IMG/VR virus record: IMGVR_UViG_2671180849_000011
Strand: one strand, 5' to 3'
Source: a virus
Taxonomy: Duplodnaviria; Heunggongvirae; Uroviricota; Caudoviricetes
DNA: 13,205 bases
The notes below the pieces were generated by a model. The model had not been told where the DNA came from. It worked only from the letters and a program-made list of their open reading frames with translations, and made no database searches. Below are positions 5,461 through 9,845 of the stretch, piece by piece (the stretch's first letter is position 1; every line of letters starts with the position of its first letter). The translations under genes were made by a program, and so were the position numbers.

Positions 5461-5592
5461 GATTCAATCTCCTGTTAGCTCACTAACCTGTGCGATATAT
5501 GGTTAAAAAGAAACGGGAACTTAAGACAAGCCCCCGCATTTTTGTTTAAGGAAATTCACTATGATGAGAATTACCCTATGATTTATATTTTA

Positions 5593-5742
5593 TCAGCTAT
5601 TTGCGAGATTGTCAACAATCTTTTTGTATTTATCTATCATTTTTTCTTCAAGGTTGTCGATTGCAGCTACTCCGGCTATGTAGGCAACACCGCACCACAG
5701 TACAGCCAGGTTGATGATCGCTATAGCGTCGCTCAGTTCCAC
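5593..5742 (-). CDS. small single-pass membrane protein (49 aa, GTG start), not in ORF track
   Basis: GTG 5742 preceded by GGAGG at 5-nt spacing; translation VELSDAIAIINLAVLWCGVAYIAGVAAIDNLEEKMIDKYKKIVDNLANS is one hydrophobic helix plus charged tail; stop TGA 5593-5595. Confidence 0.3.
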   Translation of the reverse strand: MELSDAIAIINLAVLWCGVAYIAGVAAIDNLEEKMIDKYKKIVDNLANS

Positions 5743-5786
5743 GTTGACCTCCGGATCTGTTTCTCCCACTATCTATAATCTTATCA

Positions 5787-5808
5787 TATTGACAACCAAT
5801 TGTCAATA
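5787..5808. promoter_or_regulatory. palindromic operator overlapping candidate leftward promoter
   Basis: Perfect inverted repeat TTGACAA (5789-5795) - CCAA - TTGTCAA (5800-5806), arms extend to 9 bp; on the - strand TTGACA, 17-bp spacer, TAAGAT; a third half-site TTGTCAAT at 5929-5936. Confidence 0.4.
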
Positions 5809-6424
5809 GGAATCATTATCATTTAGGCGAGCTATAGGTACAAACAAGTCCACAGCAAAGGGGTAAGCATTATTAATGGCCCCTACCGTGTCAAAACCAA
5901 AGTCACTTATAGCATTTATGCAATAAGATTGTCAATGGCCCACAAGGGAGGGAGAGCACTTTTTGCCTTAAGCGCTCTAAAATCGATTCTAACGCGATTT
6001 AGAGGTCAGGTAATGCAATTGCACTACTCACACAAGTTAATGCAGCCAGAAGGCCATTTAGGGGCCTTATTTTCGATTTCTGAGCGTCCTGTTACGTGTG
6101 TGCATACACGGGCGCGCGGAATCCCTCGCTTAAACGGTCCGGATTGGAAACAGAAGTCTCTTATCCGGACTCCACATTATATAGCTACGTGCTATCGCAC
6201 TACGCTACCCACACACAGGCCGACGTAGTCGGTTTAGCTGTATAGCTAAAGTCACAGAGTGACCCACACACAGATTGCCTAAAGAGTCGCTAATGCTCTT
6301 TAGGCTTTCATTTGTGGGTTAAGCTTTTCCCTTAGAAAACCTTCCCCACTCTCTGATCCCTCCCCATTCCCCTTGGGGGGTTAGGGGGGGATCTGTTGTG
6401 TGATCTATTAATTTATCTATTAGA

Positions 6425-6645
6425 GTGAGAAATTTTCAGGGGTACTAGTGAGAAATCTTCGGTAGTAGTGGTGAGAAATTCTCAGGGGTGTGGGTAGGTA
6501 TGGTGGTTAAGTAGTGAGAAATCTTCAGTAGTTAGAGGCTGTGTATCATGGGGGCAATGACTGCAAAACGGGAAAGCATGACTGTATAAACACACAGGTG
6601 TGAAAATTCTTCACAGGTTAGCGACACCGGAAAAATCTTCAGTAG
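6425..6645. repeat. iteron-like direct repeats, six copies of about 18 bp (consensus GTGAGAAATCTTCAG(G/T)(G/A)G)
   Basis: Copies at 6425-6442, 6448-6465, 6471-6488 (exact 23-bp phasing), 6514-6531, 6598-6617 (degenerate), 6630-6645; preceded by G-run GGGGGGTTAGGGGGGG 6375-6390. Confidence 0.6.
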
Positions 6646-6655
6646 TGTCTATCTG

Positions 6656-6753
6656 CATATGTGGGAAATACACCCTTATTGACCTATTTTGACTAGCAAA
6701 CCTCTCTCTTCTCTCTTTGCTCTGATTTCCTCTCATGTGTGGGAAATATGCAT
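6656..6753. repeat. second repeat family CAT(A/G)TGTGGGAAATA (two copies) flanking a CT-rich tract
   Basis: catatgtgggaaata at 6656-6670 and catgtgtgggaaata at 6734-6748; pyrimidine-rich tract 6701-6734; a related copy aaaatgtgggatata near 7047-7061. Confidence 0.45.
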
Positions 6754-7488
6754 ACCAACACCCGTTGATTTTATCAATAGCTATGTTGACCGGGCATCAT
6801 AAGTGTGGCCCCTGAGGCAGTCCATCCTTCCCTCACACAGGACAATGAATATATAAAGAACATGAAAGACTGTTCACACCAACACGCCGATAAATTGCCT
6901 GAAGAGGCTTACATGGGGTTATTGTTGTGTGGGTAATGGTGATCATGCTAACAGATTATGTTAATCAGATGTAAATTCCGATTTTGTGGTCTGCATGGAG
7001 CAAACTATACTGGTTAAATGATCAGGGGAATGACTACAAAACAATCAAAAATGTGGGATATAGCCATCTACACGTCTAATGTGCTGTGTGGGGTGTTAGT
7101 GCATGCTTACATGTAAGTCATTGATTTGAAGGGTTGGGAAAATTGCATTTAACATAATAGATCTTATCTACACTAATAAAGCGAACTACAAAATCTGATT
7201 TAAAAATCATGATCAGTGGGCACAGAATTTACGTACAGCCACCTGAATAAATAATGTGCACAACATACAGCAAAGCTTAAGAATTAACATAATAGCAACG
7301 TGGTCAGTAGTGGTGTGATATTTGAGAATTGTTAGAAGAAAAAAGGGAGGTGGGGGAGCGCCTGCCTGGCACCTCAGACGAGTTACCCATAAGCTCAAAT
7401 ACCGCTAATGGATATTTCTGACACCCACACCCAAGACCGCTTTCAGCACATAGCCATATAGCCACACAGGACCGCACAGGATGCAATT

Positions 7489-7698
7489 GTGATAACAAAA
7501 AATGGGGGTGTAATAGGGTAGGTCACCTTTCATCAAAATCACTTCTACGACGTTTCCAGAGTGATAACAAGAAAACAGGCCTCTAAGATTATCTGTGCCT
7601 CGTTTTTAGCTTTTTGTGTGGTTACCAGGTGAAGAGGAAATGTTAAAAACTGTTCATTTTATGCACAAACTAGTCAGGGTGATACCACAAAATGAGGT
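7489..7698. repeat. third repeat family GTGATA(A/C)CA-A-rich-GG, three copies
   Basis: gtgataacaaaaaatggggg 7489-7508, gtgataacaagaaaacagg 7561-7579, gtgataccacaaaatgagg 7679-7697; DnaA-box-like TTATGCACA at 7659-7667. Confidence 0.45.
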
Positions 7699-7887
7699 GT
7701 AAGAAATCCAGCTGCAGATAATCTTGCAGCCAGATTTTGCAGTTTTTTAGGGTATGTTAAATTTGACAAAAATAGAGAAAAGGCTTATTAAGCTAACTTA
7801 TTGATTTTATTAGTATTACGAAAAAGGGTTACACCCTCTCTCTTACTCTGTCAACCGGGCGGTTGTGGCATAAAACGGATTAAATCA

Positions 7888-7946
7888 ATAAATAGGCATT
7901 AAATAGGGGATAAATAGGGGTTAATTGAGGGATAAATAAAAAGGGG
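7888..7946. repeat. five tandem 11-bp phased repeats (A/T)TAAAT(A/T)GGGG
   Basis: Units start at 7888, 7899, 7910, 7921, 7932 (exact 11-bp period); last unit merges into the terminator stem. Confidence 0.55.
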
Positions 7947-7959
7947 CCGTGATGGCCCC
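7931..7959 (-). terminator. rho-independent terminator of the membrane-protein gene
   Basis: Stem GGGGCC (7943-7948) / GGCCCC (7954-7959), loop GTGAT; - strand tail TTTTTATTTATC (complement of 7931-7942); 8 nt past stop codon 7968-7970. Confidence 0.6.
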
Positions 7960-7967
7960 CTGGTAGG

Positions 7968-8498
7968 TCAGAACAGTTTTTTGCTTTTTCTCCAACTAAC
8001 GCCGCGTTTGCCTATGCTCAGCCAGCCGCCAGCGAATCGGGTACCTGCGGTAACACTAGCTCCCCTGGTACCTACATGTGCATAAATACCTGCTCCACTG
8101 CTACCACCGCTTCTACGGCTTTTTCCGCCATCGATATCAAGGAGAACACAGATCGCATTCCACCAAAAGCCGATCACCCATATTGCAAATGCTAAGCCTA
8201 AAACGCCCCAGGTGACCGCCCACCCTTCCAGACTAGTGGGGAAGTAGAAAGCATTGAGAACAGCATTTATAGGGCGGATCAGGAGAAAATCTATAAAACC
8301 AGTATCCACATGAAACGGTCCATTGCCGAACTTGCTACTGCCAATAAATAAGGTAGCAGGGTAAAAGAAGATAGCCATTGCCCAAGGGCCAATAAGCAGG
8401 ATAGTAGCCCCGAACTGTGCGGCCTCCTTAAAGAACATTTTTACTATTGCTTTAAAAAGCTTTTTGTTTTCTGATTCTTTATCTTTCTGAAATAACAT
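7968..8498 (-). CDS. polytopic membrane protein (176 aa) with Gly/Ser/Arg-rich C-terminal tail
   Basis: ATG 8498 preceded by AAGGGG; about four hydrophobic segments; own terminator; position and type fit a superinfection-exclusion or abortive-infection moron (inference). Confidence 0.6.
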   Translation of the reverse strand: MLFQKDKESENKKLFKAIVKMFFKEAAQFGATILLIGPWAMAIFFYPATLFIGSSKFGNGPFHVDTGFIDFLLIRPINAVLNAFYFPTSLEGWAVTWGVLGLAFAIWVIGFWWNAICVLLDIDGGKSRRSGGSSGAGIYAHVGTRGASVTAGTRFAGGWLSIGKRGVSWRKSKKLF

Positions 8499-8509
8499 GA
8501 CGGTACCCC

Positions 8510-8527
8510 TTTGCGAGAAGTTGAATT
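8510..8527 (-). promoter_or_regulatory. conserved leader element copy 1, 12 nt upstream of ATG 8498
   Basis: + strand TTTGCGAGAAGTTGA (8510-8524) identical to 9052-9066 at the same distance from a start codon; 13/15 match to 126-140. Confidence 0.5.
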
Positions 8528-8555: not shown

Positions 8556-8816
8556 CTATTTATTCTTCTTAAATCTCCCATCCTCCTTTCTCTCGATATT
8601 GTGGTAGTCGGCATAGGCTTTCAGCCTTCTGTGCACGGTGGCGATCCCCACACCGAAGGTTTTAGCGATAACCTGTCGTGGTGTTCCCTCTTCAACCATC
8701 TTGTACATCTGTTCCGCTACATCCATTTGTGCGGCTATCTCCATTTGCTTTGCCTTAGCTTTAATTTCAGCTATCAGCTCTTCCCTCAGTCTCCTGATAT
8801 CTTTAGCCCCCGTCAT
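8556..8816 (-). CDS. small HTH DNA-binding regulator (86 aa)
   Basis: SD GAGGAG 3 nt before ATG 8816; N-terminal predicted coiled coil; C-terminal HTH TPRQVIAKTFGVGIATVHRRLK of the resolvase/Mor-like type (by eye). Confidence 0.6.
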   Translation of the reverse strand: MTGAKDIRRLREELIAEIKAKAKQMEIAAQMDVAEQMYKMVEEGTPRQVIAKTFGVGIATVHRRLKAYADYHNIERKEDGRFKKNK

Positions 8817-8839
8817 AAACTCCTCTCAATGCTGTTCAT
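8813..8839 (-). CDS. 8-codon upstream micro-ORF (MNSIERSL) overlapping the HTH gene start
   Basis: ATG 8839 preceded by GCGGAG; stop TGA 8813-8815 overlaps ATG 8816 (ATGA); lies in an 18-bp direct repeat that duplicates the SD-start region. Confidence 0.2.
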   Translation of the reverse strand: MNSIERSL

Positions 8840-8916
8840 AAACTCCGCTCAATCATGATTAGTAGAACATCCAGGATAGCCAGACCTATTAAAAATGCTT
8901 TGCCTCCTTTGCCCAT
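8836..8916 (-). CDS. 26-aa hydrophobic micro-ORF (MGKGGKAFLIGLAILDVLLIMIERSL)
   Basis: ATG 8916 preceded by GGAGG at 6-nt spacing, 1 nt after stop of the upstream micro-ORF; stop TGA 8836-8838 overlaps ATG of the 8-codon uORF (ATGA). Confidence 0.25.
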   Translation of the reverse strand: MGKGGKAFLIGLAILDVLLIMIERSL

Positions 8917-8917
8917 C

Positions 8918-9040
8918 TCACACCTCCACACACAGAGCTAACATCAGGGCTAACACTCCAACCACCTCAATTGCCTTAACAATGTGTGGGTGATGAAACC
9001 TGGCCTTTTGCCATGCGCTGGCACTGTTCTTGATACCCAT
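8918..9040 (-). CDS. 40-aa micro-ORF with C-terminal hydrophobic helix (track ORF extends to 9145)
   Basis: Internal ATG 9040 preceded by SD AAGGTGA at 5-nt spacing and by leader element copy 2; ATG 9145 has no SD and the N-terminal extension is low-complexity. Confidence 0.3.
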   Translation of the reverse strand: MGIKNSASAWQKARFHHPHIVKAIEVVGVLALMLALCVEV

Positions 9041-9051
9041 AACTATCACCT

Positions 9052-9069
9052 TTTGCGAGAAGTTGATTT
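9052..9069 (-). promoter_or_regulatory. conserved leader element copy 2, 12 nt upstream of ATG 9040
   Basis: + strand TTTGCGAGAAGTTGA (9052-9066) identical to 8510-8524; GCGAGAAGTTGATTT (9055-9069) is 14/15 identical to 126-140. Confidence 0.5.
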
Positions 9070-9336
9070 GTTTGTTCGGTTGGGGTGCTATCAATGATCC
9101 CCTTCCTTGATTCGAACTATAGCCGGGTAAATCACTGGAAAACATTGATATTGATCAAAAGATATCTATCACGAATGAAAAAGTTATGATAGATGATAGG
9201 AGTCGCATAGCTGCGACCTTGGCTGTGTGCCAAGCCTGCAAAGCAGGTCAGGGATGAGGTGACGTATTGATGGGATTGATAGAGGTCTGAAAATACCGTT
9301 ACCACGCTAATTATTAGAATTTATATAATCAGGATG

Positions 9337-9365
9337 TTGACAATGTGAGTAAATACTGATATAAT
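9337..9365 (+). promoter_or_regulatory. perfect-consensus sigma70 promoter (TTGACA - 17 bp - TATAAT) with AT-rich upstream region
   Basis: TTGACA 9337-9342, exactly 17-bp spacer, TATAAT 9360-9365; AT-rich 9305-9335 (UP-element-like); faces the capsid genes. Confidence 0.65.
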
Positions 9366-9373
9366 ATACAGTA
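9354..9373. promoter_or_regulatory. LexA-type SOS box overlapping the -10 element
   Basis: TACTGATATAATATACAGTA matches the E. coli-type consensus TACTG(TA)5CAGTA at all ten flanking positions with an AT-only core. Confidence 0.45.
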
Positions 9374-9508
9374 TACCGTGAATCATTTAGCGAAGGTGGT
9401 TTACCGTATTTTCCTCCAAAGTAACGGCGACCAGGTAGCGGTGCCGCCTTATAAATAACACTACCCTGATCATCGTTGAGTGGTCGATTAATTCTCCTAT
9501 TGGGCTAG

Positions 9509-9517
9509 TTATCCACA
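9509..9517 (+). promoter_or_regulatory. consensus DnaA box TTATCCACA inside the capsid-operon leader
   Basis: Exact 9-mer; also the 5' arm of an inverted repeat CCACACAG (9513-9520) / CTGTGTGG (9539-9546). Confidence 0.3.
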
Positions 9518-9845
9518 CAGTTTTCTTTTGCGGGTTTTCTGTGTGGGTAGCTATCCCGAAAGGTATTTCCCCGCTGATGTGACCGCAGCCTGAACTGATT
9601 CGGGGGAGTGCCTTTCGTGATAGTGCTCTCTAGCAACCGTAACCATGCAGTGAACTATCAGCCAACTGTTGTTGGTTTTCCCCATATGGAATAGCCCCCG
9701 CTTGGACGGTGCGGGGCTATCTCCCTCTCCTTATATCAATCCCCCTTTAGATTTCCGGCATAACTTTTCGGCCCGAGCCTGTCGTGGTTTGAGAGGTTAT
9801 ACCTGAACCCTTTGAGGGGAGTTAATTTAAATCGCAGGTGATCAA

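Follow-up and report, generated by a model that had tools for sequence, protein, structure and literature searches.

Do the eight copies of the hexamer TGATAG between two divergent operons of a phage-related replicon form the operator of one regulator, and, if they do not, which of them might a regulator bind? The DNA that raises this question is IMG/VR virus record IMGVR_UViG_2671180849_000011 (Caudoviricetes), and "the window" refers here to the whole stretch of 13,205 nucleotides that was analyzed. A first-pass annotation had noticed the hexamers, counted on both strands, together with three palindromes (9151-9158, 9202-9217 and 9235-9247) at positions 9043-9660, and had read them as operator half-sites in a divergent control region. 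All of these elements are located where it had placed them, and the region does separate two operons: the leftward one contains open reading frames (ORFs) of 40 and 26 amino acids (aa) followed by the genes for an 86-aa helix-turn-helix protein and a 176-aa membrane protein, and the rightward one contains the genes for a 111-aa protein and the major capsid protein. We conclude that the hexamers are what is visible of a control region with several components, rather than eight copies of one operator, and that the candidate operator within it is a dyad formed by the copies at 9166 and 9187.

The excess of hexamers in this region is real and above chance, as the annotation had supposed. The 618 bp of 9043-9660 contain eight copies, compared with 0.41 expected, a number reached in none of 2000 dinucleotide-preserving shuffles; the whole window contains 19 copies versus 6.9 expected (19 being reached in none of 200 shuffles), and the 11 copies outside 9043-9660 are unremarkable. 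It should be noted, however, that the hexamer was picked post hoc, and shuffled versions of 9043-9660 were therefore screened for the number of copies reached by hexamers of any kind: a count of at least eight was obtained in none of 4000 shuffles, at least six in a fraction of 0.0065, and at least five in a fraction of 0.085. In addition, the copies are not all independent. Those at 9166 and 9187 form an inverted repeat, as do those at 9618 and 9655, and each pair counts as one event; the copy at 9194 results from an insertion specific to the window. Because this leaves five to six independent events, for which the any-hexamer probability lies between 0.085 and 0.0065, the significance that can be derived from the single sequence is only moderate, and it is therefore the comparative evidence that carries the case.

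The comparison is possible because the window has relatives. It aligns end to end with five plasmids of PLSDB, and thus corresponds to a complete circular plasmid; when the control region was compared with RefSeq, seven Escherichia coli plasmids of 13.2-13.7 kb were retrieved, with 92-96% identity. Protein and locus searches gave mostly 90-97% relatives, and searches of viral, genome and metagenome contigs with the capsid or the 111-aa protein gave close relatives only, or none. Besides 14 close relatives, which we aligned, two more diverged groups were used. One, referred to below as the L010 type, is the lineage of L010, L016 and L017, complete plasmids of 13.3 kb with a capsid protein that is 81% identical and an intergenic region that is 59% identical. 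The other, lineage 3, comprises L018-L021, plasmids of 14.0-14.3 kb with an intergenic region that is 77-78% identical. The divergent regions of the diverged lineages are also enriched in TGATAG, with five copies versus 0.19 expected, four versus 0.25, and three versus 0.16, each reached in at most 1 of 2000 shuffles. The core TGAT is over-represented as well (15 versus 5.3 expected in the window, 11 versus 4.0 in L010), and TTGAT and ATCAAT are separately enriched (5 versus 0.57 expected); part of this latter excess is accounted for by a binding box for FNR, which is described below.

It is the dyad that stands out in these alignments. The arrangement CTATCA-N12-18-TGATAG has one instance in the plasmid, where none is expected. 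Among the 14 close relatives, the 12 hexamer columns of the two half-sites show one change in one sequence, and 10 of the 15 spacer columns vary, the spacer occurring in about seven A/T-rich versions with a length of 14-15 bp (local Fisher p=0.02). Lineage 3 (77-78% identical) has both arms, and CGATCA-N15-TGATAG is found in the L010/L016 lineage (59% identical). L019 keeps all five copies of the divergent region at a background identity of 78%, at which, by our own calculation, a hexamer would be retained by chance with a probability of ~0.225. Arms that are conserved, combined with a spacer that is free in sequence and fixed in length, are the reason why we read the dyad as the footprint of an operator bound by a dimer, and on this pattern we judge it fairly probable that the dyad is a protein operator. 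The half-site idea of the first-pass annotation therefore holds for a subset, namely the dyad that is kept in three lineages while its spacer varies, and fails for the eight copies taken as one homogeneous set.

The conservation of the dyad has to be weighed against the view that the copies have no binder in common, and that unrelated constraints happen to share TGAT(AG), i.e., a Shine-Dalgarno sequence containing GGTGAT, two inverted repeats that form hairpins, FNR-type TTGAT, and a local duplication. The arms at 9166 and 9187, if transcribed, would indeed form an 8-bp hairpin; the independent enrichment of TTGAT and ATCAAT and the any-hexamer probability at five events also fit this view, as do the copies in the ribosome-binding site (9043), in an RNA helix (9618 and 9655) and in a strain-specific position (9194) that are discussed below. 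In the L010 type, however, the pairing between 9166 and 9187 is broken by a mismatch (CGATCA versus TGATAG) that leaves spacing and position unchanged, and for this reason half-sites are favored over a hairpin. Moreover, each lineage shows the excess again in its divergent region, where the leader copies do not contribute, and L019 keeps five copies. We consider it quite unlikely that a common binder is lacking.

Two further copies may belong with the dyad operator. The direct pair TGATGG-N3-TGATAG at 9268-9282 is invariant in the close family, appears as ATTGATAGA in lineage 3, and has in the L010 type a TGATAG at the position of TGATGG; judging from this pattern, it is probably an auxiliary site. 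The copy at 9088 is possibly another, and is the least conserved candidate: the close family and L019 all have it unchanged, and L020/L021 and the L010 type have lost it.

Other causes account for the remaining copies. The hexamer at 9043 overlaps the Shine-Dalgarno sequence of the 40-aa ORF, as annotated, and the 3' end of 16S rRNA can pair with the sequence GGTGAT. The copy lies within a 30-bp block that is identical across all three lineages, reads CTATAA in three close relatives, and has no counterpart in a paralogous leader ahead of the 176-aa gene (8496-8527), which is without TGATAG; it is explained without any operator. The columns of the hexamer at 9194 differ in 13 of 13 other close relatives. 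Hence the tandem TGATAGATGATAGG that had been singled out exists in this window and is absent elsewhere, the relatives reading TGATAGAT followed by a three-base gap and AGG, TGATAGGTG or similar. The hexamers at 9618 and 9655, also proposed as operators, are located ~250 nt into a transcribed leader and are paired together in an RNA structure that is supported by covariation.

The reading of the palindromes as operators is not supported either. Those at 9202-9217 and 9235-9247 lie inside a block of ~55 nt (9200-9252) that is found in 5 of the 14 close relatives and is missing from the rest, and because nine relatives lack it, they cannot be essential operators. The block can form the hairpins GTCGCA-tagc-TGCGAC, CCTGC-aaa-GCAGG and CTTGGC-tgtgt-GCCAAG. 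In L001, L003 and L008, CCTGC/GCAGG is changed to CCTAT/GTAGG with the pairing kept (G-C to A-T), so the block appears to be a structured module in its own right. A separate insertion of 47 nt with its own inverted repeat is present in L001 and L003 at window position 9083/9084, beside the 9088 hexamer. The features of the region are collected in Table 1.

Table 1. Features of the control region and of the adjoining leftward genes, in window coordinates.
Feature	Position	Strand	Remarks
TGATAG/CTATCA copies	9043(-), 9088(-), 9166(-), 9187(+), 9194(+), 9277(+), 9618(+), 9655(-)		Read from sequence
Dyad operator (predicted), ATCTATCA-N15-TGATAGAT	9164..9194	.	Hexamers 9166-9171(-) and 9187-9192(+); conserved arms, free spacer
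Direct pair TGATGG-N3-TGATAG, likely auxiliary	9268..9282	+	Hexamer 9277-9282; ~90-105 bp upstream of rightward start site
Hexamer 9088	9088..9093	-	In putative 5' untranslated region of leftward operon
Hexamer 9043 in ribosome-binding site AAAGGTGATAGTTATG of 40-aa ORF	9043..9048	-	Read from sequence
Hexamer 9194	9194..9199	+	Created by 3-nt insertion unique to this window
Variable insertion with three small hairpins	9200..9252	.	Carries palindromes 9202-9217 and 9235-9247
Perfect FNR consensus TTGAT-ATTG-ATCAA (TTGATATTGATCAA)	9145..9158	.	Includes palindrome TTGATCAA; 10/10 match
-10-like TATAGT of putative leftward promoter, without -35	9116..9121	-	Conserved hexamer
Rightward promoter TTGACA-17-TATAAT, extended -10 TG	9337..9365	+	12/12 consensus positions; sigma-70; conserved in all lineages
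Structured leader RNA, ~360 nt	9372..9735	+	Between promoter and 111-aa/capsid operon
Leader hairpin, arms = hexamers 9618-9623 and 9655-9660	9618..9660	+	Helix 9 (9618-9624 with 9654-9660)
86-aa HTH_7 protein, proposed binder	8556..8816	-	Pfam HTH_7 27.5 bits vs cut-off 23.8
40-aa ORF, membrane peptide, first leftward gene	8918..9040	-	Called by gene callers in lineage 3; similar 40-aa frame in L010 type

The third palindrome, TTGATCAA, had also been read as part of an operator; it makes up one half of a perfect FNR box and is not a phage operator. In the 13.2 kb, this box alone matches without a mismatch the consensus sequence of E. coli FNR (PMC1802743). A box is present at the orthologous place in 13 of the 13 close-family loci counted, L002 and L004 having kept the half-sites with CAGG instead of ATTG as the N4 spacer; lineage 3 (L018-L021) has a perfect box, and the L010 type reads GTGAT-CTAC-ATCAA at this position. 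Lineage 3 likewise has the -10-like hexamer of the putative leftward promoter, which reads TAAAGT in the L010 type. In the window and in L010 alike, 30.5 bp separate the center of the box from the upstream edge of this hexamer, which would place the box at about -41.5 to -42.5; a position of about -41.5 is that of a class II activator. We infer from this arrangement an FNR-activated leftward promoter with a start near 9109-9110, relative to which the dyad, whose center is at 9179, would be centered near -70, i.e., ~70 bp upstream of the putative start site. The box suggests that expression of the leftward operon may be oxygen-dependent. The perfect TTGAT-N4-ATCAA, the lack of a -35 and the predicted location of the box correspond to what is found in FNR-dependent class II promoters of E. 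coli; the differences are that the box is here on a phage-related plasmid, and that the start site and the oxygen control are putative.

Which protein might bind the dyad operator? The first-pass annotation had named proteins of 86, 161 and 71 aa, and positive evidence was obtained for the 86-aa protein, which matches Pfam HTH_7 above the cut-off and the domain with which Hin binds DNA, and for neither of the other two. Its gene is located 230-470 bp from the hexamer sites and ~350 bp from the dyad. In a phmmer search of the PDB, the sole significant solved relative of the 86-aa protein was the Hin DNA-binding domain (1HCR, E=3.4e-4), with which it shares 15 of 34 residues across the helix-turn-helix; the recognition helices, GVSTLYRYF in Hin and GIATVHRRL in the 86-aa protein, differ at several positions. 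The L010 type, whose 86-aa homologue is 62% identical, has kept the recognition helix IATV(H/Q)RRL and shares the hexamer too. An AlphaFold2 model (mean pLDDT 83.7) consists of a long helix (residues 2-41) followed by helices 46-53 and 57-71, and a Foldseek search of the PDB with this model gave generic helix-turn-helix matches only, with E values of at least 0.3. This family is a rare one: an exhaustive search of 1.84 billion proteins gave 30 representatives at E values up to 1e-3; its nearest outsiders, of 233 and 247 aa, carry an uninformative C-terminal extension, and a tblastn search of phage records with the 86-aa protein found none.

The sites bear a resemblance to those of Hin as well. 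Hughes in 1992 and Feng in 1994 reportedly found that the outer end of the hix half-site, (T)GATAA, is the part that the Hin recognition helix contacts in the major groove, and TGATAG shares five of six bases with TGATAA at this outer end. The half-sites of hixL/hixR are GGTTTTTGATAA, that of gix is GGTTTTGGATAA and those of bix are GGTTTTAGATAA or GGTATTCGATAA, and the gix/bix half-sites end in GGATAA, AGATAA or CGATAA (PMC3241671, Table 3). A hix site measures 26 bp (PMC3798978). The system presented here is like Hin/hix in having the closest solved helix-turn-helix, a core TGATA(G) that is similar to the outer end of the hix half-sites, and outward half-sites 14-15 bp apart, the spacer of the dyad being one base longer than that of hix in the window and of the same length in L006 and L019. 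It is unlike Hin/hix in lacking a catalytic domain and a second site, in that the last base is G rather than A, and in that regulation rather than inversion would be involved; in addition, the dyad spacer is variable, whereas hix has a conserved A/T tract and a fixed central dinucleotide.

These differences bear on the idea that the dyad is itself a crossover or accessory site of the hix or res kind, used by a serine recombinase acting in trans for multimer resolution. TATCA-N14/15-TGATA does resemble the hixL/hixR half-sites ending in GATAA, and the symmetric hix site, which we take to be TTATCA-N14-TGATAA, is still closer to the dyad; the neighboring protein has a helix-turn-helix of the recombinase type, and one relative is recorded as a trimer of 39.6 kb, so that multimers may form. 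However, no recombinase catalytic domain was found among the proteins scanned, the dyad is present in a single copy, and its central spacer is its most variable part, which is the opposite of what a crossover site requires; we regard this use of the dyad as extremely improbable.

Returning to the reading of the dyad as a regulatory operator, our proposal that the 86-aa protein is the binder of the hexamer sites is a tentative one, to which we give slightly less than an even chance. Plausibly, the long helix in the model would allow an antiparallel helical dimer of the protein to span two turns of the DNA.

Several observations, in addition to the moderate single-sequence significance, weigh against an operator bound by the 86-aa protein. 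The eight copies have no flanking consensus in common past 6-7 bases, subsets of them sharing TGATAGA or TTCGTGATAG, and a test of the TGAT cores for helical phasing found none. The sequences compared belong to one narrow family, in effect three lineages that are 59-94% identical. A scan of viral contigs with the 16-base dyad gave 71 matches, a number that is chance-like by our own rough estimate, and none of these was near a homologue of the helix-turn-helix protein or in a comparable cluster. The -35 and -10 of the rightward promoter are free of hexamers, as is the core of the putative leftward promoter, and a search for a leftward sigma-70 promoter found no good one, which leaves that promoter a putative one. 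As for the binder, there are at least four other possible DNA-binding proteins on the plasmid (161 aa, 61 aa, 71 aa and a Rep-like protein), the similarity to Hin does not fix the target as the specificities of HTH_7 domains are diverse, and a center-to-center distance of 21 bp is long for a dimer of an 86-aa protein.

The other side of the control region is formed by the rightward promoter, which is followed by ~470 nt without a gene before the 111-aa gene; the true divergent region is, therefore, limited to ~9041-9336. A candidate LexA box over the rightward -10 and start (CTGA-N8-ACAG) was rejected, as it is not conserved in half of the family or in L010. The leader transcribed from this promoter appears to be structured. 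Its predicted fold has a z-score of -3.6 relative to shuffles, and of -3.8 in L010, and the consensus structure obtained with RNAalifold from 16 distinct sequences of the three lineages contains 72 pairs. Compensatory changes affect 13 pairs, versus 4.3±1.7 in shuffles (0/500) and 2-5 in slid controls, and 97.9% of the cells are paired, versus 40-50% in slid controls; there are in effect three lineages behind these figures, and the sequences in which the pairs were counted had also served to derive the structure. Searches against Rfam gave no match at the gathering score and only chance-level ones at E values up to 10. The hexamers at 9618 and 9655 pair base for base in the minimum-free-energy fold, and are part of helix 9 of the consensus structure, which is 100% paired; lineage 3 has TTATCA here, which gives a G.U wobble that is tolerated in RNA, and the L010 type lacks the hairpin.

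A long helix, GAAAGGUAU/AGUGCCUUUC, is also part of the leader. At its end, the L010-type leader has a canonical terminator, GGAATACTCC...GGGGGTATTCC followed by T9 (L010 1405-1440), and the window has at this position a GC-rich hairpin without a U tract. By analogy with known leaders, the RNA may exert control after initiation and so gate the capsid operon. It shares with the lambda pR'-tR' region (6S RNA, Q antitermination) and with the P4 leader (CI RNA) a near-consensus promoter, a long structured leader and a terminator-like hairpin before the structural genes; it differs from them in that there is no similarity of sequence or at the level of Rfam, that no antiterminator was identified, and that the terminal hairpin of the window has no U tract. 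The leader also contains, at 9509-9517, a perfect DnaA box, TTATCCACA, which provides the 5' arm of a hairpin, CCACACAG...CTGTGTGG; at this position, lineage 3 reads TTATCCATA or TTATCCATG.

On the leftward side, the 40-aa and 26-aa ORFs (8835-9040, minus strand) encode hydrophobic segments, and their start and stop codons nearly abut, which suggests that the leftward genes may be translationally coupled. The 40-aa frame is found in all lineages; longer versions of 58 or 75 aa were discarded, being broken in relatives by indels of 47 nt and 11 nt. Neither ORF matched a library of defense systems, and comparison of the neighboring proteins with PADLOC and NCBIfam gave nothing usable. On the minus strand, a motif AAWTCAACTTCTCGCAAARGG recurs in the leaders at 9038-9069 and 8496-8527, immediately before the start codons of the 40-aa ORF and the 176-aa gene, respectively, and ahead of the corresponding L010 gene (310-331) as well. 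All three lineages have the copy at 9049-9070 without a change, and it is better conserved than the neighboring coding sequence. The motif may be an element of translational control.

The plasmid family to which the window belongs consists of E. coli plasmids of 13.2-14.3 kb that have been recorded in Chile, China, Japan, South Africa and the USA, and its capsid cluster contains 441 sequences; we found no paper in the literature that describes it. One member, NZ_CP043822.1 (which includes L008), is a plasmid record of 39.6 kb that contains the 13-kb unit three times, either as a natural multimer or as an assembly artefact. The plasmid genes encode a partial set of structural proteins (major capsid, tape-measure, baseplate-like (Dit-like) and tail-completion proteins) and a Rep-like winged-helix protein. 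Identity to the proteins of the rV5-like virulent phages (Vequintavirus) amounts to 50% for the baseplate-like protein and 24% for the capsid protein, and the plasmid proteins scanned included no identifiable terminase, portal or tail-tube protein. The gene content thus makes it probable that the plasmid is a plasmid-borne satellite of rV5-like phages. According to a 2025 review, only one plasmid has so far been shown to be a phage satellite (PMC12282955).

The plasmid also has an unusually long stretch of 2.5 kb, for a 13-kb replicon, without an annotated gene in any relative (5461-7967). It contains iteron-like repeats GTGAGAAATYTTCRGKRGT (~five copies, 6425-6646) and three to four 11-bp repeats ATAAATAGGGG (7888-7931), and is probably an origin together with a partition or control site. 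The possibility that the TGATAG copies are themselves Rep iterons was dismissed: the iteron-like repeats are at 6425-6646, and the TGATAG copies are 6 bp long and in mixed orientation, and not direct repeats of 17-22 bp. A heptamer, CCACACA, usually in the form YCCCACACA, is present in 17 copies in the window versus 1.18 expected (0/200 shuffles), including those at 6209, 6264, 6736, 6926, 7085, 7462, 7615, 8926, 8983, 9513 and 9540. Most of these are in the gene-free stretch and the leader, and two of the leader copies are paired in a stem; the pair in the 40-aa ORF is codon-constrained (HHPH, CVE).

On such a replicon, the sites may be operators for a protein that is not encoded next to them, i.e., a helper-phage regulator that turns the element on upon infection, another plasmid protein or a host factor. 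The conservation pattern indicates that a protein binds, and not which one, so that a non-adjacent binder fits the footprint equally well; the region already holds the site of a host factor in the form of the FNR box, and the structural genes point to an rV5-like helper. Satellites commonly sense proteins of their helpers, as in the cases of SaPI, P4 and PLE. With respect to a helper protein, however, the first 50 kb (36%) of one rV5-like genome contain 29 copies of TGATAG versus 31 expected, with at most three per 620 bp, and no phage record resembles the control region at the DNA level in either near or distant search modes. With respect to the host, the hexamers did not fit, by eye, the consensus sequences of IHF, OxyR, Fur, PhoB or LexA, and we know of no E. 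coli regulator whose consensus would fit them. Overall, we hold a non-adjacent binder to be unlikely.

A helper might also recognize the array for another purpose, as a packaging (pac) site like that of phage P1, with hexamers flanking a cleavage point, read either by its terminase or by the 86-aa protein in the role of a specificity factor resembling a small terminase. The pac site of P1 is said by Sternberg and Coulby to consist of seven TGATCA/G hexamers in a 4+3 arrangement. Here too, TGAT-type hexamers are clustered to either side of a central point, and this on a phage-related replicon, with three minus-strand copies to the left and three plus-strand copies to the right of 9179, and it adjoins the capsid operon; since no terminase-like gene was identified among the proteins scanned, a satellite would need a site that its helper can package. 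Unlike the P1 hexamers, though, TGATAG is without the GATC that makes them Dam-dependent, the outer copies are poorly conserved and are not shared across the lineages, and the scanned part of the rV5-like genome has no like cluster. The helix-turn-helix of the 86-aa protein is at its C-terminal end, which is not the case in known small terminases, and there is neither a match to a terminase family nor any other link to a terminase. A role as a pac site is, in our opinion, very unlikely.

The explanation that we propose, an operator dyad with auxiliary sites for the 86-aa protein beside an FNR-dependent promoter and other causes for the other copies, has as a whole about an even chance of being correct. 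The 86-aa Hin-like protein would bind the dyad in dimeric form, with the long N-terminal helix joining the two subunits, and each helix-turn-helix would read a TGATA(G) core in the way that Hin reads TGATAA at the outer end of the hix half-site. Bound ~70 bp upstream of the putative, -35-less leftward promoter that has the FNR box at about -42, the protein would provide feedback on its own FNR-dependent, i.e., anaerobic, operon, and the sites across 9088-9282 may also affect the strong rightward promoter of the capsid operon. In this scheme, the positions and enrichment of the hexamers, their conservation pattern, the family of the protein, the FNR consensus and the covariation of the RNA are observed, and we infer the identity of the binder, the sign of the regulation, the leftward start site and the dimerization. 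The arrangement would be comparable to OR of phage lambda, bound by cI and cro, in that repeated or dyad sites lie between divergent operons beside a small helix-turn-helix gene with the potential for autoregulation; it would differ from OR in that the sites are off the -35 and -10 of the strong promoter, that the box of the host protein FNR is included, and that the structural operon is apparently controlled after initiation. More speculatively, a Hin-like module of the recombinase type may have been domesticated as the stand-alone 86-aa regulator, which, by way of TGATA(G) sites and jointly with the FNR box, would couple oxygen status to a switch between plasmid maintenance and expression of the capsid operon; the element would be an undescribed plasmid-borne satellite of virulent rV5-like phages, with a structural operon that is also gated by a new leader RNA. 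This combination we consider doubtful.

In summary, the hexamer cluster on its own is a feature of an ordinary kind, operator half-sites beside a small helix-turn-helix gene, and the surrounding element and the leader RNA are the more novel items. The predictions made here are concrete and cheap to test experimentally. The control region, with its dyad, FNR box, consensus promoter and covarying leader RNA, would be the decision point of a plasmid satellite, and it bears on how such a satellite senses its host and its helper.

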